29,986 bases of DNA from Promethearchaeota archaeon. Lineage in GTDB: Archaea > Asgardarchaeota > Lokiarchaeia > Sigyniarchaeales > SOKP01. The notes below the pieces were generated by a model. The model searched no databases, had not been told where the DNA came from, and saw nothing but the letters and a program-made list of their open reading frames with translations. The position numbers and the translations under genes were made by a program. This document shows positions 3,789 to 23,175 of the stretch, piece by piece; positions within the stretch are counted from its first letter, which is position 1, and each line of letters starts with the position of its first letter. Location: positions 1-29,986 of the forward strand of contig RDOA01000001.1 of NCBI GenBank assembly GCA_011364925.1. The letters are read 5' to 3'.

Positions 3789-4310
3789 TTAATATTTACT
3801 GTTTTTCATTAATTCTTGTACGATTAAATCAAACACAAGATCAACATTTGTTCCAGTCTTTGATGATGTCTTCACATAATCGATCATGTTGAATGTATTT
3901 TTTATACTATCGGCAGATTCGTCATCTACGGCAATGAATTCTTCCAAATCAAGCTTCGTCCCGACGAGAAGTATTGGAAGATCGAAATCGTGCATTCTTA
4001 CTATATTTACCCAGTTTAAGATGTTTTCTACTTTAGGCATTCGTGTAAGGTCAAACAGTAAGAGTGCACCTTTAGCTCCCATAATAAAACTCTCTAATAG
4101 GTGTCTAAAGCGTTCTTGTCCCCCTAAATCCCATAGTTGGAGCGTGCAATTCCCAACATTTTCGTAAATTACTTGTTTAATGAAAAAATCGACTCCTACT
4201 GTTGCTATGCTGGACTCGTCAAACGTACCATCTACATATTTTCGAAGTAGCGTGGTTTTTCCAACGGCGCCATCACCGGCTACAAGAATTTTGAATACGA
4301 AGTTTTTCAT
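3789..4310 (-). CDS. Rab/Ras-like small GTPase (Asgard eukaryotic signature protein)
   Basis: G1 GDGAVGKT, G2 ATVGVDF, G3 LWDLGGQERF, G4 GTKLD, G5 TSSKTG; 173 aa; no C-terminal Cys. Confidence 0.93.
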   Translation of the reverse strand: MKNFVFKILVAGDGAVGKTTLLRKYVDGTFDESSIATVGVDFFIKQVIYENVGNCTLQLWDLGGQERFRHLLESFIMGAKGALLLFDLTRMPKVENILNWVNIVRMHDFDLPILLVGTKLDLEEFIAVDDESADSIKNTFNMIDYVKTSSKTGTNVDLVFDLIVQELMKNSKY

Positions 4311-4384
4311 TTTGTATCGGGTATTTGCAATATTAGAACGTGACCTTATTATAATAAATAATAAGAATTTGCTCTTTTATTTTA

Positions 4385-6613
4385 TTATGTTATTTCTAAA
4401 ATTAATTGAGATTTTAGTTCATTTTTTACAATTTCATCAATTTGCTCCAAAATATGAGCTATATTCTTATTAATAAGTGCTTGAATTTTAACTTTAGAAC
4501 TCGTACCTCTATCTCTTTTAAGTGCTTCCATCGTAAGAGATTCTGAGATTGAGTGAGCTCTTTTAGCCAAATCAGCTAGTTTTAGGTGATTTATGTTAGT
4601 TTCATCAAATAATTTTATAGGGAGTTCGAATGGAATTTTAAATATATGTCGAGAGCTTTTTTTTATTTGAACTTGTTCAGTCATTAGTGGTGAGTTTAGA
4701 ATAGCTGATAAGTAATACGCTTCTTTTACATTATCCGTTGAATAAAAACTCAAATCTCCTGTAATAAGGAAATCCCCTTGAACCACCGCAGAGTTAACTA
4801 CTGATCCGGAATTATTGTACACTACTTTAATCTGAGATGTTTGTCTAGAATTAATGAGTTTTGACCATCGGTTTAGATTATCCATTAAAGAATTATTCTT
4901 AGTAGATTCTTTTTTGTTTTCCAAATAAAATTGATTTATCTTATCATAGAAATTTTTAGCATTTATCTTTAAATCAGAATAACTAAATGCCAAATTGTCT
5001 TTTTTTAATGGAAGAAATACACTATAATAGTCATACACATAAAATTTTATCAGTTCGGTGCTTTTAATAACCTTAAAAAGATATTCTCGTTCGATTATCT
5101 CGTTCCTAAATATGCCTTGATTCCAAGGTTCCTTAGCCCTTTTAAAGATCCTATCATCAGGGTTAATTTTCACTAGGAAATCATTAAGTTTTTTAAATTT
5201 TACAAAGATTAAATTACGAGGATTCAGATCTGCTCCCTTATGAAATAATTTTTTGTAATTACTAGTTCTAATTGGTATTAGAGTATCATAATCCTCACTT
5301 GAGATTAATTTGTTTGAATAAATTTTTCCTGCTTTTGTTTCGAGATTATATGGTTGCATTAATCCAGTTTCTTCTAATATTAAGTTTACTGAATCAAAGT
5401 AATTCAATTTTTTTCCATTCTGATCAATTGAAAAAAGAAAAAATGGAATCTTCAGATTAGAATTTTGATCCTTAAGAACACTCTTTTGAGCAAAGATACA
5501 AATAAAGTCTATATTGAATATTTCAGCAATTTCCCGCTTAAACATCCACAGTTTGATGTTGCTAAAGCCTTTAAAATTGCGAAAACGAGCTGCGTGAGAA
5601 CCATTTATTACACCTTTAGTGATTACAAAGAAAATCTTTCCATCTTTTTTCATGTGGGTTGTTTTGGCTTTGTAGAAAAATAACGATGCTATTTCAATAT
5701 TTAGCACATTTTTAGGAAGAGGTTTAATTTCTAGAGCCTCTGATAAATCCTTTACCTTAACTTGGTAATCTGGAGAATCTATATCCCTTAAAGTAAACCA
5801 TGGAGGATTACCTATAACCAAATCATAATCTTTATTGGATTCCTCTTTATTTTGGAATAAAAAGTCTGTGATTTTAAAATTATTACAAATTTTTGTGAAT
5901 TTTTCCTTAAGTAGAAAGAGTAAATTAATCTTCGCCAAATACAATGAAATTGGGTTTATATCGTAGCCATATAAATTTTTAAGCGCTCTAATTTTGTTAT
6001 CTTCTGAACTCTTTGTATTTATTATGTTTTTAGTAATCGCAATTAAGAAGTTTCCCGAACCACAACAAGGGTCGATAACTTTATCACCGAAACTATATGC
6101 TTCTTCAACCATGCTTCTAACTATGAATGGGGGTGTATAAAACTCTCCAGACTTGTGTCTTAAATGAGAAGAAAGCAGATGCTGAACTATAGCATCAAAC
6201 ATATATTCAGGATAAATCTTTAAAGAATTCATGCTACTAATTATGATTTCAACTATATGCTTATAGCTATTGGAATCTAGTTCTTTTAAAGCGTCGAAAA
6301 ATGATTCAAAATAATAAAATTCGGATGAAAATACAAATTCATACTTTTTTTCGATATTTTTTTCAACTTCAGAAATGACTTTATACGAATACTGACTAAG
6401 ATTTAGAATATATTTAGCGATGTAGAGCTTGGCTATAAGGCAAATTAAGGAATAAATCGTAAATAATTGAACATTAGTGCGTTTTTTACCATAAATTTTA
6501 ATAAAATAGTAATACCAATCTTTGTAATTATCAGATTGTTGAATTCCTTTCTTTATTATCAAGTTTTCTAAAACCTGCAGTTCCTGTTCAAAATTAGGTA
6601 ACTCAACATTCAT
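4385..6613 (-). CDS. N6-adenine DNA methyltransferase (N-6 DNA methylase / Eco57I-TaqI-like, gamma order) with probable C-terminal target recognition region
   Basis: 'GEFYTPPFIV', motif I 'IDPCCGSGNFL', 'GYDINP', motif IV 'DLVIGNPPW', 'YLSAILNS'. Confidence 0.88.
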   Translation of the reverse strand: MNVELPNFEQELQVLENLIIKKGIQQSDNYKDWYYYFIKIYGKKRTNVQLFTIYSLICLIAKLYIAKYILNLSQYSYKVISEVEKNIEKKYEFVFSSEFYYFESFFDALKELDSNSYKHIVEIIISSMNSLKIYPEYMFDAIVQHLLSSHLRHKSGEFYTPPFIVRSMVEEAYSFGDKVIDPCCGSGNFLIAITKNIINTKSSEDNKIRALKNLYGYDINPISLYLAKINLLFLLKEKFTKICNNFKITDFLFQNKEESNKDYDLVIGNPPWFTLRDIDSPDYQVKVKDLSEALEIKPLPKNVLNIEIASLFFYKAKTTHMKKDGKIFFVITKGVINGSHAARFRNFKGFSNIKLWMFKREIAEIFNIDFICIFAQKSVLKDQNSNLKIPFFLFSIDQNGKKLNYFDSVNLILEETGLMQPYNLETKAGKIYSNKLISSEDYDTLIPIRTSNYKKLFHKGADLNPRNLIFVKFKKLNDFLVKINPDDRIFKRAKEPWNQGIFRNEIIEREYLFKVIKSTELIKFYVYDYYSVFLPLKKDNLAFSYSDLKINAKNFYDKINQFYLENKKESTKNNSLMDNLNRWSKLINSRQTSQIKVVYNNSGSVVNSAVVQGDFLITGDLSFYSTDNVKEAYYLSAILNSPLMTEQVQIKKSSRHIFKIPFELPIKLFDETNINHLKLADLAKRAHSISESLTMEALKRDRGTSSKVKIQALINKNIAHILEQIDEIVKNELKSQLILEIT

Positions 6614-15251: not shown

Positions 15252-16160
15252 TTAATCGTTATCACTTGGAATTTTTGGTAGGTTTCTGTTCGGTGAAGAA
15301 GAATTATTATTATCTTCCACCTTTCCAGCTTTTTCTCCTTTTTTAAGTACTTCTACGGCTTCAATGATTCCTTTTTTATCATTAAAATAAACTCTAAAGA
15401 TATTATTATTTAACTCCATTACGCCTTTAGGAAGTTTTGTCACCTCTTCCCACACTATTTCTTTAACATTTTCACCTAACACATCAGTTACTTTTAAGAC
15501 GGCACCATATAATTTATGACCAAGAATTAGGTTTTGGCGCTCTAAATTTTCGGGAACGCTAATCCTTAATATTTTTTCTTTAATATTTTCCTTGTCCTCA
15601 TCTGATAATTCTTTTATGTTCTCTATTTTGGATTTCTTTTTTGCAACTGGTGTTCCTAGAGCAAATGTTGAAATAACTACATCATCAGTTGACTTTGTTA
15701 ATCCTAGACTATAATATTCTTTATTATCTTTTTGTACGCTTGCTTTTTGTTCTTTTTTATGCCGTTCTAATTCTATAAGGCGATCGCGTTCAATATTTCT
15801 TACATATCGCATATCTGGAAGTCTTTCTGTTACTTCCATCGATTCCAACATAAAAGCGTTCAAGAATTCTTGAAGCTCGTCTCCTTGATCTATAGAGATT
15901 ATTTTGCATCTATGATATCGAGCGTCTTGAGTCAAGTCTCGTTGCAAATCTTGCGCAACTCGAGAGCTTATAAATCTTTTCCTTACGGGAGATTTCGAAC
16001 CTTTCCAAATGTATATTCTTCTGAGGTCTTCTCTTATAATTATTAACACTTGTTCAGGATTCAAATAACTTTGAAGTTCTTCGGGGCGAATATTTAGCTT
16101 AGTACGTTCTCCAGTGTCTTCAAGGTCATATACTATGAATTCCTCGTAGGTTTCAGTCAA
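15252..16160 (-). CDS. Gelsolin-domain protein (single gelsolin domain plus uncharacterised C-terminal domain; 1DGelX-like)
   Basis: 'LNPEQVLIIIREDLRRIYIWKGSKSPVRKRFISSRVAQDL...KIISIDQGDELQEFLNAF' matches the gelsolin repeat pattern (LnsxdvfIld...IyxWxGxxs...r..A..........eGxE...F). Confidence 0.8.
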   Translation of the reverse strand: MTETYEEFIVYDLEDTGERTKLNIRPEELQSYLNPEQVLIIIREDLRRIYIWKGSKSPVRKRFISSRVAQDLQRDLTQDARYHRCKIISIDQGDELQEFLNAFMLESMEVTERLPDMRYVRNIERDRLIELERHKKEQKASVQKDNKEYYSLGLTKSTDDVVISTFALGTPVAKKKSKIENIKELSDEDKENIKEKILRISVPENLERQNLILGHKLYGAVLKVTDVLGENVKEIVWEEVTKLPKGVMELNNNIFRVYFNDKKGIIEAVEVLKKGEKAGKVEDNNNSSSPNRNLPKIPSDND

Positions 16161-16385: not shown

Positions 16386-17180
16386 TTAAAATCTGCGACG
16401 GGGACCACCAAATGGACCTGGAAACCTTCCACGACGGATAGGACCTCCTATCATTGGACCCACTCCCTGAGTATCGTGCATTACGTTATCAATGGATAGG
16501 ACAAATCCTACTAAAATCCTTCTATCAGTCTCATTATCTAAAATACGGAGCGCGTACCGATCTGCGTAATCAAAAATCCCTCCTAAGAATATATCTCTCC
16601 ACCGATCAGCTTTTTCTATCTCTGCTACTAATTTTCCCGTCGATATGTCAAAGACTTTGAATGACCAACCAAAGAAGTCTCCATCTGCCTCATACCATCG
16701 ATTTCCCATAGGATCTTCCAGAAAAAACTTTGATCTGAAAAAGGTTAAAATTTTCTTTTTGATACGCGCAATTAACTGTCCATCTGGAGTCTTTAAATCT
16801 TGAGCACCTCGCGCAGAGACTATCTTACTGTGAATCGTAGCTACAACTGTACCATCTAATTCTTGAAGTTCGACTCGTCTTCTTATACTAAATATTATCC
16901 GATTCATTCTTCCAATTAACTTTCCTTTTTCGTCCATAATATCGCCATATCCAAGATCCCAAGCGCGTTCATGAATCACATAATAGGTTCTACTAAGGTC
17001 AAACAAACTAGCTCCATCTGAAGGAGTTTGCGCTGGTTTCGAAGGAGCGACCGTATTTTCCTCACTCTTCTTTTTTTTTTCAACCAAGGGTAATTCGGTA
17101 CCACATTTTTCGCAAAACTTTTGATCTTCGCTTGTATAGGCTCCACAATTCGGGCAATTCATAAAATCAACTTTTTCCAT
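16386..17180 (-). CDS. Zinc-ribbon + LURP-one/Tubby-C/scramblase-like domain protein
   Basis: N-terminal 'CPNCG...FCEKCG'; repeated beta-hairpin units 'IMDEKGKLIG', 'LQELDGTVVA', 'LKTPDGQLIARIKKK', 'GDFFGWSFKV...GKLVAEIEK', 'DRYALRI', and terminal helix 'LVGFVLSIDNV'. Confidence 0.8.
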   Translation of the reverse strand: MEKVDFMNCPNCGAYTSEDQKFCEKCGTELPLVEKKKKSEENTVAPSKPAQTPSDGASLFDLSRTYYVIHERAWDLGYGDIMDEKGKLIGRMNRIIFSIRRRVELQELDGTVVATIHSKIVSARGAQDLKTPDGQLIARIKKKILTFFRSKFFLEDPMGNRWYEADGDFFGWSFKVFDISTGKLVAEIEKADRWRDIFLGGIFDYADRYALRILDNETDRRILVGFVLSIDNVMHDTQGVGPMIGGPIRRGRFPGPFGGPRRRF

Positions 17181-17325: not shown

Positions 17326-18114
17326 ATGTCAGATAAATCTACTATACCACGTTTGTTAAAATTAAAAGACTATGTTACGCTTTTAGGAACAACAATCGGG
17401 ATAATCGCGTTGATTTGCGGTTCGTTTGGGCACCGAGACGCAATATCATTAGGTTTTTTCTTAATCTCGATCACATTAGGGACCGATTTAATTGATGGAT
17501 ATATTGCGAGAAAGACGAAAACAGTAAATGAAATGGGTAAAGAACTTGATTCTTTAAGCGATTCATTAACTTTTGGGATAGTACCTGCCATATTATCTTT
17601 CTTAGCGTTTAAAACAGGCACCTTTTACGATTTCATACTCGGAATCGGATGCGTATGCTTTGCGCTTGGTGCGATTTTAAGGTTAGCTAGATTTAACATT
17701 TTAGCAAACCCGGGCTATACAGGAGTACCCACACCTGTAAGTTGTCTATTAGTAATCAATTTCTTCTATACAAATTACTTTTATGCGCTTGCAAATGGTG
17801 GTTGGAGCGTCCCTTTTTTAGATATTGCCTATTATGTAGCACCGTTTTTCTTAATCACTCTAGGTTGGTTGAACATTACTACTTATATTAAGTTTAGTGA
17901 AAAAGGGAAAGTTGTATATGTTATGTTCATAATTCTTGCCCCTCTAGCCCCTATATTTGGTATAACTGGCATTTTAAACCCAAGTCCTATCGTAGCGATC
18001 ACAATTTCAATAGTATTTTTATCGTTTCTTATATTGATATTCGGCTGGGTGGCAACACACTCTTTTATACTTAGTCTATTAAAAAAAAAAAAGAATGGCA
18101 ACGAAAAAGAGTAG
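17326..18114 (+). CDS. CDP-alcohol phosphatidyltransferase, PssA-like (archaetidylserine/phosphatidylserine synthase-like)
   Basis: Family signature 'DLIDGYIARKTKTVNEMGKELDSLSD'; PssA-type 'LRLARFN' and 'YTGVPTP'. Confidence 0.85.
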   Translation: MSDKSTIPRLLKLKDYVTLLGTTIGIIALICGSFGHRDAISLGFFLISITLGTDLIDGYIARKTKTVNEMGKELDSLSDSLTFGIVPAILSFLAFKTGTFYDFILGIGCVCFALGAILRLARFNILANPGYTGVPTPVSCLLVINFFYTNYFYALANGGWSVPFLDIAYYVAPFFLITLGWLNITTYIKFSEKGKVVYVMFIILAPLAPIFGITGILNPSPIVAITISIVFLSFLILIFGWVATHSFILSLLKKKKNGNEKE

Positions 18115-18152: not shown

Positions 18153-20096
18153 CTACAGAATGTGTTTTTCCCATTCTTCAATGCTCTCTATAATATGATT
18201 TATATCTACATCGCTTAGATGACCGAGATGAGTTTTGTATTGGTTTATTTTACTTCTTATCTTATGCAGTGTTACGCTGAAACCCTTCTTCTCCAAGATC
18301 AAGTCCGCGATTTTTTCCATTTCTTCACTGAATTCTTCTCCGTTGAGTTTGTGAAGCTTTTGAATTAAAGTTTTAAATGCAGTTTTTATAAACACAGAAG
18401 AATCTTCATTCGCTTCTATTGGTTCTTTATCTTTTATTGACTCATGTGCGACATTAACTTTTTCAGAGGGAATTTCAATTTTTTTTTGGATTTTTTCAGA
18501 TACAGTGGTAAACTTATCACTAAGCTTTACTTCTTGGAAAGAAGGTTCTTCTTTTACTGGAGTTTTGGATTTTGTTTGAGTTACTTTAAAGTGCGAAGAA
18601 GAAATCGGATTTGAAGTTTTTACTACATTACTTTCTTTTAAAGGACTGATACCAAGAGATTTTGGCGTCTCATATAAACTGGATGTTGCAGTATCCCACA
18701 CTGTGTTAACAACAGATAAAAATAATTTAATCACAGATTTATTACTTGTTGCAAATCCAATAAAATCTGATAACGAATCTTGGGAAGATTCTCTTATCAA
18801 TCCGATAAGTAAATAATTATCATCACTTTTACAGACCATAATATTATCGTTTTTAAGAGTTCGAAATTCTAGATTCTTCAATTCTTTTAACGCTTTAACG
18901 TGACTATTAGTGTGCGGCTCTGAAGATGCTAATTCAATTTTAACACCTTTGGATATGTCTTTAAAATCATCATATGCAATATGGTCCTCTAACTTGGGAA
19001 CAATTACCATAAATTTTTGTCGTGATTGTGAAATGTTAAATATGATTTCTTCGTTAGCTCTTGACACACTATTTATATCCCAGAAATCAATGTCTCCTAC
19101 GGTTGTAGTTAATTTTAAATAGCTTTCCAAAGAGTTATTAATAGGATTATTTAATGCAGCAACAGAATCAATAGAATGATATATGATTTCCTTGAAATTT
19201 TCTATAATCACATTCTCAAAGTCATTTAGATCAGCGTCTAGGGTATCTCGTTTTGTTTTTATTAGTTCAATTATTACATTAATCTTTTTCTCGTAACTAT
19301 TTAACATGTTAAGTAAAACTAATTGAAAATCGTTTCGAAATTGGAAGGTTGAATTCACAATATTATTTAAGGACTCGATTGTATTTTTAAACTCCGCCTC
19401 TATTAATCTGTGCAAGTTTGCAGTAAAATCTTTCAAAAATTTATTGAAGTTCTCCTTAAATACGTTTTCTATTGCGTCTAAGACAGGCTTTTCATTTTTT
19501 TTTAATTCTAAGTATCCAATTTGATTGTTAATATCAGTTTTAATGTTTGTAATTAATTTAATAAGATATGAAAACTGAGTCTGAGTTATTCCTTTTATAG
19601 ACTGTTGTAAGTTTTCTATAACCTTTTCTATCACTTTCAAGTTTTCCATACCCTGGACTATATCTTCAATGTCTTGTTTCTGAATGATTACGTCCTCTTC
19701 GATATCCTTCCATAGATCTTGTGTAGCCTTATACATAGAATCTAATTCGACCAATTTATTCTCTTGAAAGATAGTACTTAAGGAATTCGATATTAGCAAT
19801 TGTAATTGACCTTTAAGGACGTCTAGGTTCGTATTTATATTGTTATAATAATTAAGGATAGGATTAATTGGAGGAAGTGATAGATATTGTAAAAACAACT
19901 CTGAGCCTTGAAGTTTAATCGGTACGAACAAACCTGCTTCAGTTAATTCTTTAATTATATTAGAAAAATCTTCTTGAGAAATATTTGGTAAAATCGAAAA
20001 TAATTCAAAAGAAGATAATGGCGCTTGACCAACACAACGGAGGTACAACTCGAGTGCTGTATCTGAAAGTTGGATACTTTTTAATAAGTCTTTCAT
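18153..20096 (-). CDS. TrmB-like protein: N-terminal wHTH, long coiled-coil region, TrmB/PLD-like effector domain, low-complexity linker, C-terminal helical domain
   Basis: N-terminus 'LSDTALELYL...LSSFELFSILP...IIKELTEAGLF...YLSLPP' resembles the TrmB HTH. About 250 aa of heptad-like helices. 'FWDINSVSRANEEIIFNISQSRQKFMVIVP' resembles the start of the TrmB C-domain. No HKD motif. Confidence 0.6.
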   Translation of the reverse strand: MKDLLKSIQLSDTALELYLRCVGQAPLSSFELFSILPNISQEDFSNIIKELTEAGLFVPIKLQGSELFLQYLSLPPINPILNYYNNINTNLDVLKGQLQLLISNSLSTIFQENKLVELDSMYKATQDLWKDIEEDVIIQKQDIEDIVQGMENLKVIEKVIENLQQSIKGITQTQFSYLIKLITNIKTDINNQIGYLELKKNEKPVLDAIENVFKENFNKFLKDFTANLHRLIEAEFKNTIESLNNIVNSTFQFRNDFQLVLLNMLNSYEKKINVIIELIKTKRDTLDADLNDFENVIIENFKEIIYHSIDSVAALNNPINNSLESYLKLTTTVGDIDFWDINSVSRANEEIIFNISQSRQKFMVIVPKLEDHIAYDDFKDISKGVKIELASSEPHTNSHVKALKELKNLEFRTLKNDNIMVCKSDDNYLLIGLIRESSQDSLSDFIGFATSNKSVIKLFLSVVNTVWDTATSSLYETPKSLGISPLKESNVVKTSNPISSSHFKVTQTKSKTPVKEEPSFQEVKLSDKFTTVSEKIQKKIEIPSEKVNVAHESIKDKEPIEANEDSSVFIKTAFKTLIQKLHKLNGEEFSEEMEKIADLILEKKGFSVTLHKIRSKINQYKTHLGHLSDVDINHIIESIEEWEKHIL

Positions 20097-20231
20097 ATTG
20101 GTCTTGTTCCTTTTTGGTTTTAATAATATGTAAGATCAATATCTAAATTTTAAAGTTTTTTAGATTAAAAAAAATATTTAAACTATAACTTTCTACACTA
20201 AATTATAAAGACTTTAGGTATTAACAGTATT

Positions 20232-21635
20232 ATGAGCCCCTATGAGGATATTTTCTTCTACTTGGATTTAACAAAAGAAATATTAAAAAAAAAAGAAGTA
20301 GTTAAGGCAATAAAGTTTTACATCTCTGAAAGGAATAAAACGAATGTTAAAGGCAATTATGGATTATTGATCTTCCAAGAAGCAGGGGATCCAATATTTA
20401 TAACTGATAAGGCGGATTCCGATATCATTGAGAACGCTATTGAAGAAAACTGGAAAAATCGTCCTAAGGAGCAATCTTTTTTTGAAAATGGGCTATTTTA
20501 CATCTTTTCATATATAGCTGAGACTATAAGAAAGAAATCAAGACATAATAGAATTATTATTATCACCGATACGCCTAGCGATCTGGCTGAAGAATACACT
20601 GAAGCACTGTTCGGTTTGGTCTCAAAAATCAAAGGAATACCTACTTTTATAGATATTATCAGAATCTCAGAGAAAGAAGAACGATTCTTTAGAGACGATG
20701 TTAAACTCAATATTTTAGCAAACGATACGAAGGGGAGAATTTTCTACTTATCAGATCGGAAAGATTTCATGGATATTATAAAAAGTTTAACAAAATCTAA
20801 AGAAATTTTGAACTTATTTCAACAAGATTCAGATAAATTTAAAATTAAAAAAGAGGATTATGATTTCTATTCCCGTTTAGCCAAAAATTTAATTCCCGCA
20901 CAGACGACTGAAGTAGGTTTGAAATGTCACCTCTGTCAAGAAGAAATTTGTCCTAGTTGTGCCGATGTAAACGATACATTGCAATTATGCGAAAACTGTA
21001 AAAGTCCATTTCATAATTGTTGTGTGACTAATTACACAATACAGAATAATATTGGAATACCATTTATTTTTCGGTGTCCCAATACCGAATGCCAGATACT
21101 TTTAAAAATCGATCAAGAGGAAATTGTGACACCAAATGAAGATACAGCTGAATCAATCGAAGAGTTTATAGAAAAGGATGGAAATATTCCAACTTTTGCT
21201 GAGGACCTGATTGAGGATAGCCCTGGGTTATCTGATGCTGAACGGCACTACCAAGAGACTGAATCAGTATCAGAGAACAATCAGGGAAAAAAATCCGAAC
21301 AAAGCGTGCGAAAAGTCAGAATTGGAGGATTTTTTGGTAAAACATATACTATTAAAAAAGAAGGCGATAAAATTATATATCAAAAGATATCTACCCCGAA
21401 TGGTTCAAGTGAGTTTGAAGATATAGAAGAAAAAGAAATTAATCTCCCTCCGAAACCAAGGCTTGAAAAAGTTATGGTTCCCCAATCTTGGAGCCCTTCA
21501 AGAAAAACTAACGAGGCAGATAATGATAAAAATAAGCCAAGTGAAATAAATTGTCCTAGTTGTGGCACACAAATAAATGATTTAAATAGTAAGATCCAGT
21601 TATGCCCGTATTGCGGACATAGGTTAGAATTATAA
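20232..21635 (+). CDS. vWA-like domain + Cys-rich RING/PHD-like finger + C-terminal zinc ribbon protein (paralog 1)
   Basis: vWA-type strands/helices 'IFFYLDL', 'YGLLIF', 'SFFENGL', 'RIIIITD', 'FIDIIRI', 'LANDTKGRIFY'; finger CHLC-x4-CPSC-x9-CENC-x4-HNCC-x17-CPNTEC; terminal CPSC...CPYC. Confidence 0.7.
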   Translation: MSPYEDIFFYLDLTKEILKKKEVVKAIKFYISERNKTNVKGNYGLLIFQEAGDPIFITDKADSDIIENAIEENWKNRPKEQSFFENGLFYIFSYIAETIRKKSRHNRIIIITDTPSDLAEEYTEALFGLVSKIKGIPTFIDIIRISEKEERFFRDDVKLNILANDTKGRIFYLSDRKDFMDIIKSLTKSKEILNLFQQDSDKFKIKKEDYDFYSRLAKNLIPAQTTEVGLKCHLCQEEICPSCADVNDTLQLCENCKSPFHNCCVTNYTIQNNIGIPFIFRCPNTECQILLKIDQEEIVTPNEDTAESIEEFIEKDGNIPTFAEDLIEDSPGLSDAERHYQETESVSENNQGKKSEQSVRKVRIGGFFGKTYTIKKEGDKIIYQKISTPNGSSEFEDIEEKEINLPPKPRLEKVMVPQSWSPSRKTNEADNDKNKPSEINCPSCGTQINDLNSKIQLCPYCGHRLEL

Positions 21636-21783
21636 TTTTTAATTGAGTACTCTTCGAACGAAATTATTGATAAATAAAATTAGAATGAACCAAGGATCAA
21701 TAAAAATAAATAAAAAATCTGTTATCATTCTATGTAACTTCACTTGATTATTGGATAAAATTTTTAGTGCTCTTGGTTTTAAT

Positions 21784-23175
21784 ATGTTTAAGAAATCAGC
21801 GGTGAATTCAGAGGAATTTATTTTTTACATCGATCTCATAACAGAATTTATTAAAAAGAAGAATTTTATCAAAAGTATTGGCGCTTTCATAAAAGATAAA
21901 GCTAAATTTAACACGGTAAGCTCATATGGATTATTAATTTTTCAAAAGGACGATAATCCTGTATCGTTATACGATGAAACCGATTTTGAACCGATCAGTG
22001 AAATTATGGAAGAAAAGTGGGAGTTTAGAGAAACGAGCCAAAGTTTTTTTGAGAACGGTCTATTTGAAATACTAGCCTATGTCTTTAGAAGAAGTAGAGA
22101 AGCACGCAAAAATTATAGAATAATAATTATTTCTGATACTCCTAGCACCTTATCAGAAGATTACCATAACGCGCTTTATGATCTTTTAATTAAAGCTAAA
22201 AATTTCGATACATTCATCGACATTATCCGCGTAGGAGAGGAAAAATTTTACGACGACGATGTTAAATTAAAAATTATAACAAGCGAAACGCATGGCGGCG
22301 TGCTCTATTGCAACGATCCAAAATCATTTTATAATATCTTAGGATCCTTAGTTCAGAGTAAATCAGAATTTAATGTCGTTCAACCAGAAGCAAGTAACCT
22401 AATTTTAAAAGAGGACAAGATATTCTACGAAAAATTAGCTGTAGATTTAATTTCATTAAACGCTGGAGAGGAGGAAAAGTGCGATATATGCGAAAAGGAA
22501 GTATGTCCTTTTTGTAATGCATACTCGGATGAAGTACACAAGTGCTTTAACTGTAATGCGAAATATCACGCTTGTTGTGCTGCTGATTATTCTATTTCAA
22601 ATAACATAGGTTTTAATCATCTATTTAGATGTATTCAATGCGATACTCTGTTAAAATTAGATGAAGATTACGTTGAGATGATTTACGAAGAGGAATACGA
22701 AGAAGAAATGCAAGAAGTTCCAGCTGAAGAAACTGAACCTGATGTAACACCTCCCAAAATTGAAGATCATATTAATATAGAAGAAGTAGTAGAAGAAATT
22801 CAAGTAGAACAACAAAGTGTTGACGAAAATATTGAAGAAGTAATTATTGGAGAGAGCATTCTCAACCCAGAAAAACTCAAATCTCCACCGAGTCTAAGCA
22901 AACCTCCTTCGCTTACAACTACAGTCAAAAAAGTAAGGATTGGTGGATATTTTGGTCAAGAAGTTAGTGTTAAGTCTAACGGTTCTGGTAATGGCCTTAT
23001 TCCTTCAATAAGAAAGTCAGTCTCGAAAGATACGGAAGTATTAACCCACGCGGAAGAGAAAATTTCAATAACTACATTAAAACCACCTAAAAAAAGCACC
23101 ATTAAATTATGTAAAATGTGCGGTCAAACTCTTATGAGTACTTCCACATGTCCTAAGTGTGGATTTAAAAATTAA
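21784..23175 (+). CDS. vWA-like domain + Cys-rich RING/PHD-like finger + C-terminal zinc ribbon protein (paralog 2)
   Basis: Colinear with the upstream paralog ('FIFYIDL', 'YGLLIFQ', 'QSFFENGLF', 'RIIIISDTPS', 'TFIDIIRV', 'DDVKL', 'ETHGG'); finger CDIC-x4-CPFC-x9-CFNC-x4-HACC-x17-CIQC; terminal CKMC...CPKC. ATG 21784 preferred over TTG 21751. Confidence 0.7.
   Translation: MFKKSAVNSEEFIFYIDLITEFIKKKNFIKSIGAFIKDKAKFNTVSSYGLLIFQKDDNPVSLYDETDFEPISEIMEEKWEFRETSQSFFENGLFEILAYVFRRSREARKNYRIIIISDTPSTLSEDYHNALYDLLIKAKNFDTFIDIIRVGEEKFYDDDVKLKIITSETHGGVLYCNDPKSFYNILGSLVQSKSEFNVVQPEASNLILKEDKIFYEKLAVDLISLNAGEEEKCDICEKEVCPFCNAYSDEVHKCFNCNAKYHACCAADYSISNNIGFNHLFRCIQCDTLLKLDEDYVEMIYEEEYEEEMQEVPAEETEPDVTPPKIEDHINIEEVVEEIQVEQQSVDENIEEVIIGESILNPEKLKSPPSLSKPPSLTTTVKKVRIGGYFGQEVSVKSNGSGNGLIPSIRKSVSKDTEVLTHAEEKISITTLKPPKKSTIKLCKMCGQTLMSTSTCPKCGFKN

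Follow-up and report, generated by a model that had tools for sequence, protein, structure and literature searches.

A tandem pair of Lokiarchaeial vWA-RING-zinc-ribbon proteins as a candidate docking adaptor or ubiquitin-ligase-like scaffold

The DNA analysed here (the window, 29,986 nt) is a stretch of contig RDOA01000001.1 from a Promethearchaeota archaeon. Its G+C content of ~33%, a Ras-family GTPase, gelsolin and other genes are typical of a Loki-type Asgard archaeon. It encodes two neighbouring paralogs, in the following P1 and P2, which combine a von Willebrand factor A (vWA) domain with a RING-type finger and a C-terminal zinc ribbon. Profile comparisons assign P1 and P2 to a divergent branch of a vWA-RING superfamily that was seen in one archaeal order only. 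They arose by lineage-specific tandem duplication and, at a probability of roughly 55%, act as a docking adaptor or ubiquitin-ligase-like scaffold of the cytosol, a function which we infer from architecture and conservation. The initial annotation, made from the DNA sequence alone, had regarded the pair as a candidate archaeal counterpart of the p44/p34 heterodimer of TFIIH or as a vWA-RING ubiquitin ligase (E3) module.

Architecture of the pair

P1 and P2 are co-oriented and arranged in tandem, as initially described. They share 38% identity over 397 aa (BLASTP, E 3e-81), far beyond chance. The P2 open reading frame spans 21751-23175 and would encode 474 aa if opened at TTG 21751. Since its orthologs, with 98% of the query covered, begin at MF(K/R)K and thereby at a Met internal to P2, the true start is probably ATG 21784. 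The features of the pair are as follows.

20232..21635, + strand: P1, open reading frame of 467 aa with vWA domain, helix, RING-type finger, disordered linker, beta-meander and zinc ribbon
20232..20795 (aa 1-188), + strand: P1 vWA domain with degenerate metal site (AlphaFold confidence, pLDDT, mostly 70-92; Foldseek, VIA and hhalign)
20844..21116, + strand: P1 linker helix and RING-type C4HC3 finger, ligands at 20925-21092 (conserved Cys/His, model, fold searches)
21126..21305 (aa 299-358), + strand: P1 acidic, predicted disordered linker (pLDDT 27-38; P1 and P2 unalignable there)
21306..21386 (aa 359-385), + strand: P1 VRKVRIGGFFG motif and short predicted three-strand beta-meander (alignment, AlphaFold model)
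21552..21614, + strand: P1 C-terminal C4 zinc ribbon with C441, C444, C458 and C461 (four Cys invariant in the alignment)
21784..23175, + strand: P2, open reading frame of 463 aa from the probable start ATG 21784, same architecture as P1
22480..22641, + strand: P2 RING-type finger with the 11-ligand pattern of P1 and an x2 last knuckle (alignments, pattern statistics)
22924..22956, + strand: P2 VKKVRIGGYFG motif, aligning with the P1 motif; the flanks do not align
23110..23172, + strand: P2 C-terminal C4 zinc ribbon (alignment)

An alignment of 26 sequences spanning both paralog groups contains 71 invariant columns. These cover the Cys/His cluster, a GG-FG motif inside the otherwise unalignable linker and the four terminal Cys. 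The blocks that had been listed as common to both copies are all invariant or nearly so in this alignment. Searches with P1 returned 364 homologs at E ≤ 1e-3, and wherever a source was named it was an Asgard archaeon, mostly assigned to Lokiarchaeota or Promethearchaeota.

Disorder is predicted in P1 at aa 299-358 and 386-436 (pLDDT <50). In the low-pLDDT model of the meander in between, the strands lie at 360-364, 370-377 and 380-385. Its residues G365, G366, F368 and G369 (RIGG(F/Y)FG motif) do not vary in either of the two paralog groups. The linker had been called acidic and Pro-rich. It is acidic and predicted to be disordered in both proteins, but notably Pro-rich in P2 only and not in P1. 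The proposed terminal zinc ribbon (CxxC...CxxC) is present in both. In P1 it gives a weak match to Pfam Zn_ribbon_3 (E 9e-4, below the curated cut-off); in P2 it follows a Ser/Thr/Pro-rich tether and is preceded in the orthologs by a conserved EKISIT.L.PP motif.

The vWA domain and its degenerate metal site

In the AlphaFold model of P1, aa 1-188 form a well-predicted alpha/beta domain. Foldseek recognises it as vWA with a probability of 1.0 and target-normalised TM-scores (template modelling) of 0.63-0.71 against single vWA domains. Its top rows for P1 are p44, Ssl1, Tfb4 and p34 (E 4e-9 to 1e-7), with alignments reaching into the zinc regions. The structural comparison with VIA, in which rows within one Z unit are treated as ties, yields Z scores of 18.0 for human p44, 17.7 for ArnB, 17.6 for plant Rpn10 as well as 17.5 and 17.4 for Ssl1. 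Dozens of further vWA domains follow at 14-16.5, including the Sec23/24 trunk at 15.2-15.6. The alignments span 170-187 residues at 2.6-3.5 Å. Hence p44 comes first but is not set apart, because the values of p44, ArnB and Rpn10 tie. The vWA fold that had been read from strand and helix order is thus borne out by a Foldseek probability of 1.0 and Z scores of 14-18 over ~175-185 residues, and the modelled N-terminal domain of P1 is beyond doubt of this type.

The metal ion-dependent adhesion site (MIDAS) is degenerate, again in line with the first reading. In a profile alignment against canonical paralogs of the same genome (see below), the DxSxS motif corresponds to D-L-T-K-E in P1 and D-L-I-T-E in P2. 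The positions of the MIDAS Ser, Ser and Thr hold T/I, E and F, respectively, and only the two Asp (D12 and D113) are kept. The pattern of a metal site, DxSxS...T...D, is accordingly found in neither P1 nor P2. Three loops on the MIDAS face are invariant in the 26-sequence alignment, namely D12, E85-N86-G87 and D113-T114-P115-S116. Their invariance despite the loss of the metal ligands points to a surface kept for docking rather than for metal binding.

A likeness of the segments SFFENGL and TxGGxxY...F..I to Ssl1 had also been proposed. Both sit on generic vWA elements which align with a bacterial BatA-like protein as well, so that they were dropped as evidence specific to Ssl1.

The central RING-type finger

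Behind a helix at aa 207-216, the P1 model shows a compact zinc-type domain at aa 226-295, which reaches a pLDDT of 86 when modelled alone. Eight ligands with the spacing C-x2-C-x17-C-x2-C-x4-H-x2-C-x17-C-x2/4-C are invariant and correspond to the C4HC3 cross-brace of a RING finger. The same arrangement, C-x2-C...C-x2-C-x4-H-x2-C...C-x2-C, is known from the C4HC3 RING domains of E3 ligases (FANCL, listerin/Ltn1, RING-CH/Doa10, Slx1 and Nse1); unlike those, the RING of the pair is fused behind a vWA domain. Four further ligand positions in the finger are conserved (C240, C243, C263 and His278). The Cys/His cluster noted initially can be specified as an 11-ligand pattern of 10 Cys and one His, which is kept in 239 of 240 cluster representatives.

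The top matches read from the Foldseek and VIA searches with the finger are all RING-type, with few PHD entries listed. VIA gives Z scores of 7.3 for the FANCL RING (62 residues, 2.5 Å), 6.6 for listerin, 6.0 for HOIL-1L and Deltex, 5.8 for APC11, 5.7 for Nse1 and 5.3 for the p44 RING at rank 11. No Foldseek E-value gets down to 0.001, which is usual for a domain of 65 residues. At the sequence level, the profile of the pair family finds weak PHD and RING matches in the PDB, PHD at E 0.1-3, and the C4HC3 spacing would fit a PHD finger too. The Pfam RING and PHD models match neither P1 nor P2 above cut-off. Prok-RING_1 (PF14446) scores 11.9 bits (E 0.23) on P1, there on the C-terminal ribbon only, and 17-27 bits on remote superfamily members, in each case below its cut-off of 29.1 bits. 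The C4HC3 pattern and the RING-type fold matches with a best Z of 7.3 nevertheless uphold the RING/PHD-like central domain of the initial annotation.

The positions at which RING fingers usually contact a ubiquitin-conjugating enzyme (E2) are hydrophobic: I, L or F precedes Cys2 in nearly all sequences and Pro follows Cys7 in 118 of 119 P1 sequences. Moreover a Tyr is found on the finger helix in 229 of 239 representatives. A division of labour of the BRCA1/BARD1 type was considered from the residue after Cys7 (Pro in P1, Ile/Val in P2). This difference is limited to close relatives of the source-genome P2, and Pro is kept in the P2 orthologs of the genera g2, g3, g5 and g6.

The four extra ligand positions are conserved in the pair family and missing from the canonical paralogs; we thus assume that they probably form a third zinc site. 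Rbx1 and APC11 carry an extra zinc in the loop that joins the first ligand pair to the second. The pair resembles these three-zinc RINGs by having its extra ligands in the corresponding loop, the third site itself being deduced from conservation. Position 278 (window 21065-21067) is Phe in P1 of the source genome, as in 2 of 119 P1 sequences, while 236 of 239 family representatives have His. Its last zinc knuckle (21080-21092) is of the x4 type with a two-residue insertion relative to x2, which is shared by 11 of 119 P1 sequences. Together, Phe278 and the x4 knuckle may point to a weakened putative third zinc site in this particular protein.

Canonical paralogs and the wider superfamily

Sequence searches with the pair itself lead only a short way. 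Pfam hmmscan (E ≤ 1) found no vWA, Ssl1, Tfb4, RING or PHD match in P1 or P2, only a sub-threshold zinc ribbon, and the profile of the pair family retrieved no vWA protein from the PDB sequences at E ≤ 10, only the weak RING/PHD matches and ribbons. Genome-wide, Ssl1 matched C48, C29 and C38 at E ≤ 10 and not the window, Tfb4 gave a sole match on C29 below cut-off and none in the window, and C1_4 had none in the window at E ≤ 10. The comparison with Ssl1 (PF04056) and Tfb4 that had been suggested at the outset was therefore negative for these profiles, the latter being PF03850, as well as for C1_4 (PF07975).

An exhaustive profile search of 1.84 billion cluster representatives returned no more than 201 proteins at E ≤ 0.001. 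Among them are distant proteins of ~350-460 aa with weak VWA_2, PHD, C1 and Prok-RING_1 signals. The source genome itself encodes two unlinked relatives on other contigs, L001:1462-2649 (C48, 395 aa) and L002:1459-2658 (C29, 399 aa), here called canonical paralogs. In each, a vWA domain that retains DxSxS is joined to a C4HC3 finger and, at the C-terminus, to another finger of RING type. VWA_2 matches them with 64-66 bits and VWA is matched too. Against Ssl1 (cut-off 27 bits) L001 scores 33 and L002 24 bits; L002 reaches about 20.8-24 bits against Tfb4. The hhalign comparison of the pair with the canonical group gives 99.5% probability and an E-value of 4e-23 over 283 columns, covering vWA, helix and first RING. 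Both groups are thus homologous over these parts, in the same order-restricted distribution. They differ in that the canonical proteins keep DxSxS, miss the extra CxxC/C/H ligands, do not occur in tandem and end in the second RING, with no linker, meander or ribbon.

In the PDB, the canonical-group profile finds Rpn10 (1e-17), human S5a (9e-16), human p44 (1.3e-14), a bacterial BatA-like protein (6e-13), Ssl1 (8e-9) and an integrin I domain (1e-6). The profile of the wider superfamily gives the same order with weaker values (Rpn10 best, 8e-9) and adds MERIT40 and Tfb4 at ~1e-5. In a protein-language-model space, the neighbours of P1 are its own clusters, then the canonical Lokiarchaeial clusters at 0.94 and 0.93, where Ssl1 is annotated on 76-92% of the members. 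Eukaryotic TF2H2 clusters (0.88-0.86) and Tfb4 (0.81) come next, scores below 0.9 being leads only. Taken together, the profiles indicate a real link to the eukaryotic intracellular vWA clade at the level of the superfamily, and it is the canonical paralogs that provide this link. p44 and Rpn10 are not told apart by it, and by the same profiles both are only marginally apart from bacterial BatA-type proteins. The best p44-like candidates of the source genome are L001 and L002, not the pair in the window.

These profile matches raise the option of a receptor similar to Rpn10, in which the vWA domain would dock on the proteasome or a Cdc48-type machine, leaving the recognition of ubiquitin-like modifiers to the zinc modules. 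Rpn10 is the best profile match of both the wider superfamily and the canonical branch and is close to P1 in fold (Z 17.6). The connection comes from the canonical paralogs, however, and not from the pair, whose own profile misses every vWA protein in the PDB. Rpn10/S5a carries ubiquitin-interacting motifs (UIMs) and no zinc modules; a Pfam scan of the pair at E ≤ 1 showed no UIM, short motifs of this kind being easily missed. We consider this role very unlikely.

Several relatives differ from the above architectures. In the metagenomic protein P0338 (519 aa) a vWA domain of the MIDAS-less type (E 6e-19) is fused with a patatin-like phospholipase. In P0337, P0339, P0341, P0354, P0358 and P0360 (~1100 aa) linker helix and RING, at residues 220-400, are the only domains recognised. 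The canonical L002 gene lies head-to-head with L002:77-1285 (- strand), which encodes 402 aa with a middle part resembling a small-GTPase domain by eye. A full-text literature search found no paper on an Asgard vWA-RING family or on its link to p44.

Distribution and duplication history

The distribution was determined in 150 genomes spread evenly over the phylum plus the source genome; f1 denotes the GTDB family of the window and f2 its sister family. The pair family (E ≤ 1e-5) occurs in 25/25 f1 and 2/2 f2 genomes, and 123 genomes belonging to 25 other families gave no match. For the wider superfamily (E ≤ 1e-8) the split is identical, with 28/28 genomes of the order, source genome included, against 0/123 other Asgard genomes, at 3-6 matching loci per genome. 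As the genomes are a sample, zero means not found in those searched rather than absent. Ssl1 is matched above cut-off in all 28 genomes of the order, usually twice per genome, in 0/123 other Asgard genomes at E ≤ 0.001 and in 0/14 control genomes at cut-off. The pair is therefore conserved in related genomes, as had been demanded of it.

A maximum likelihood tree of the vWA-RING region was calculated from 43 sequences with archaeal and metagenomic relatives (LG+C20 PMSF, midpoint root, distant superfamily members outside). P1 of g1, g2 and g3 forms one clade (100/100). A second group consists of the g4 single copies and a P2 clade of g1, g2, g3, g5 and g6, and the two groups unite into a single clade supported at 99/99. 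Outside it, on earlier branches, are the f2 sequences and several metagenomic clades. Single copies are found in g4 and f2 genomes, and the single copy of g6 falls inside the P2 clade. In g5 (G132, L020:9543-10043) P1 is a 166-aa remnant with a stop codon, in g6 (G141, L019) it is absent; in both, P2 is intact beside a TrmB-like gene. Read from the tree, the tandem duplication took place within one GTDB family and was followed by at least two losses of P1. In g4, two genes separate the single copy from the TrmB-like gene. They were examined as a hidden P1 and turned out to encode a luciferase-like monooxygenase and an unassigned protein, neither of them a relative.

This history decides against an old duplication of the p44/p34 type. 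An event inside one archaeal family, with single-copy lineages branching earlier, a P1 remnant in g5 and the loss in g6, is not the archaeal counterpart of the duplication that gave rise to p44 and p34. Moreover any heterodimer would derive from a protein acting alone or as a homo-oligomer.

One alternative is a true functional equivalence, in which P1 and P2 would associate as a heterodimer to bind the archaeal XPD/XPB helicases and control them during repair or transcription. The nearest solved look-alikes do include p44/Ssl1 and p34/Tfb4, as had been suspected: they fill the top Foldseek rows, p44 leads the VIA list, and among named eukaryotic clusters TF2H2 at 0.88 and Tfb4 at 0.81 lie closest in the language-model space. 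In TFIIH, too, intracellular vWA domains are followed by zinc modules including a RING-type finger, in two vWA paralogs (p44/GTF2H2/Ssl1 and p34/GTF2H3/Tfb4), and an XPD-type helicase is encoded in the source genome. This gene lies on C26, a contig other than that of the pair, XPD-type helicases also occur in the archaeal control genomes, and no p52/Tfb2 was matched in the source genome; the pair showed no link to XPD or p52. Its finger is of the C4HC3 type with extra ligands, nearer to FANCL, listerin and APC11 than to the C4C4 RING of p44, which only ranks 11th; the tail with acidic linker, RIGGFFG meander and zinc ribbon is unlike TFIIH, and the duplication is recent and independent. Add the Pfam result for Ssl1, Tfb4 and C1_4, the tie of p44 with ArnB and Rpn10, and the failure to find the family in 123 genomes of other Asgard families, and such equivalence is the least probable of the alternatives. 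The specific p44/p34 assignment was given up, also in view of the better p44-like genes elsewhere in the genome. As far as sequences tell, the likeness to p44/p34 is architectural and does not imply ancestry; the pair is not an ortholog and was duplicated independently.

Genomic neighbourhood

The surroundings of the pair in the window comprise the following features.

15252-16160: gelsolin-domain protein, conserved upstream block
16386-17180: zinc-ribbon and LOR/scramblase-like protein, conserved upstream block
17326-18114: CDP-alcohol phosphatidyltransferase, conserved upstream block
18153..20096, - strand: divergent TrmB-like neighbour gene, 647 aa (context, outside the pair)
20097..20231, no strand: AT-rich divergent intergenic region of 135 nt, common to P1 and the TrmB-like gene (sequence read)

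The order of the upstream block, with gelsolin, zinc-ribbon/LOR-scramblase-like and CDP-alcohol phosphatidyltransferase genes and then the TrmB-like gene, is kept across the genera g1-g6 of f1. The downstream side is variable across genera. In f2 (G089, L021:6004-7869) the single copy has a Ras-family GTPase and an actin homolog as its neighbours.

Such neighbours would suit a membrane or cytoskeleton adaptor working by the logic of Sec23/24, whose vWA and zinc modules recruit cargo or the lipid-remodelling and actin factors encoded nearby. The Sec23/24 trunk is indeed among the fold matches, with Z scores below those of p44, Rpn10 and ArnB. In Sec23/24 the zinc finger precedes the vWA domain and beta-barrel, helical and gelsolin domains follow it, an order that the pair does not share, and small GTPase and actin-related genes are common in genomes of this kind, so that their adjacency may be due to chance. 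An adaptor of this sort thus appears improbable.

The TrmB-like gene adjoins the pair or the single copy in g1, g2, g3, g5 and g6, with two genes in between in g4. Its product has 500-670 aa across g1-g6, with a putative winged helix-turn-helix (wHTH) at the N-terminus, a long helical or coiled-coil middle and further domains. The TrmB signal is weak: the g4 ortholog matches PF01978 at E 0.004, and 25-33% of the members of the Atlas clusters of the neighbour itself carry Pfam TrmB. With the 647-aa protein of the window, no Pfam model scored above threshold and no PDB sequence was matched.

A regulatory neighbour of this type would agree with a switch resembling ArnA/ArnB of Sulfolobales. In it, the vWA domain of the pair and the tethered ribbon, either of the same chain or of the partner, would make up a signal-dependent complex which controls gene expression jointly with the TrmB-like protein. 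ArnB ties with the top VIA matches (Z 17.7), and ArnB as well as the Sec23/24 trunk exemplify a cytosolic vWA domain working with a zinc-ribbon finger. In the crystal structure of ArnAB a zinc-ribbon finger docks on ArnB, and ArnB-like architectures recur in WAV3-type E3 ligases and Sec23/24 (PMC12852372). The Ser/Thr/Pro-rich tether before the P2 ribbon and the conserved divergent neighbour with its TrmB-type wHTH signal would fit as well. However, the matches of ArnB and Sec23/24 to the P1 model cover the vWA domain only. The beta-sandwich and helical domains of ArnB, where the ArnA finger binds, are missing, as is a gelsolin domain; after the vWA domain come one helix, a RING and then disorder, and the ribbon is tethered in cis. 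Further, neither an FHA domain nor a kinase was found near the pair and the TrmB assignment is weak. We regard this switch as unlikely, if the least so among the alternatives.

Proposed function

The reading as docking adaptor or ubiquitin-ligase-like scaffold may be outlined as follows. The vWA face would dock a protein partner, by analogy to p44-XPD, Rpn10-proteasome, MERIT40 and ArnB. The RING would either recruit an E2 of the organism in an E3-like manner or serve as a structural docking module like the p44 RING for p34. Two E2 genes (UQ_con) above the Pfam threshold are present in the source genome at C41:13-450 and C19:27737-28153, as the statement on encoded ubiquitin-system components had led one to expect. 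The tethered meander and ribbon may bind either in cis or in trans. In genomes that retain both copies, P1 and P2 probably form a hetero-oligomer derived from an ancestral homo-oligomer, and expression of the pair is probably coupled to the divergently transcribed TrmB-like gene.

Several points weigh against this reading. The finger has no evident linchpin Arg after the last ligand, and P1 of the source genome lacks the usual His278 ligand, a rare state. RING-type folds also serve in roles other than that of an E3, such as in p44, Nse1 and PHD readers. The synteny with gelsolin, scramblase-like and phospholipid-synthase genes (actin and Ras GTPase in f2) equally fits a role at the membrane or cytoskeleton. 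The P1-P2 hetero-oligomer is putative, and as P1 is dispensable in g5 and g6 no heterodimer can be obligatory. Lastly, the whole-chain model of P1 is only moderate (mean pLDDT 63).

A more far-reaching, joint interpretation holds that the superfamily including the pair shares specific ancestry with the p44/p34/Rpn10 clade and that the pair is a heterodimeric three-zinc RING ubiquitin ligase working in the ubiquitin system of Asgard archaea. We judge it doubtful at best. If it were true, the pair would offer an archaeal model for the origin of vWA-zinc-finger scaffolds such as the TFIIH core.

Scaffolds that combine vWA and RING domains are central to eukaryotic machines, TFIIH with its p44/p34 among them, and related vWA domains are found in Rpn10 and MERIT40. 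The pair is a derived variant of the vWA-RING theme, devoid of the metal site and apparently with three zinc sites, from one lineage only. Should its RING recruit an archaeal E2, it would represent a tractable archaeal E3 with a built-in docking domain, and should the superfamily be sister to p44 and Rpn10, it would bear on eukaryogenesis. The significance is tempered by the occurrence in one order only, the recent duplication and the near equality of BatA-type proteins with p44 (6e-13 vs 1.3e-14).

Other genes in the window

At 3789-6613 on the - strand, the window encodes a Ras/Roc-family small GTPase of 173 aa beside a 742-aa N6-adenine methylase of the Eco57I/MmeI type. The latter may be a type IIG restriction-modification enzyme.

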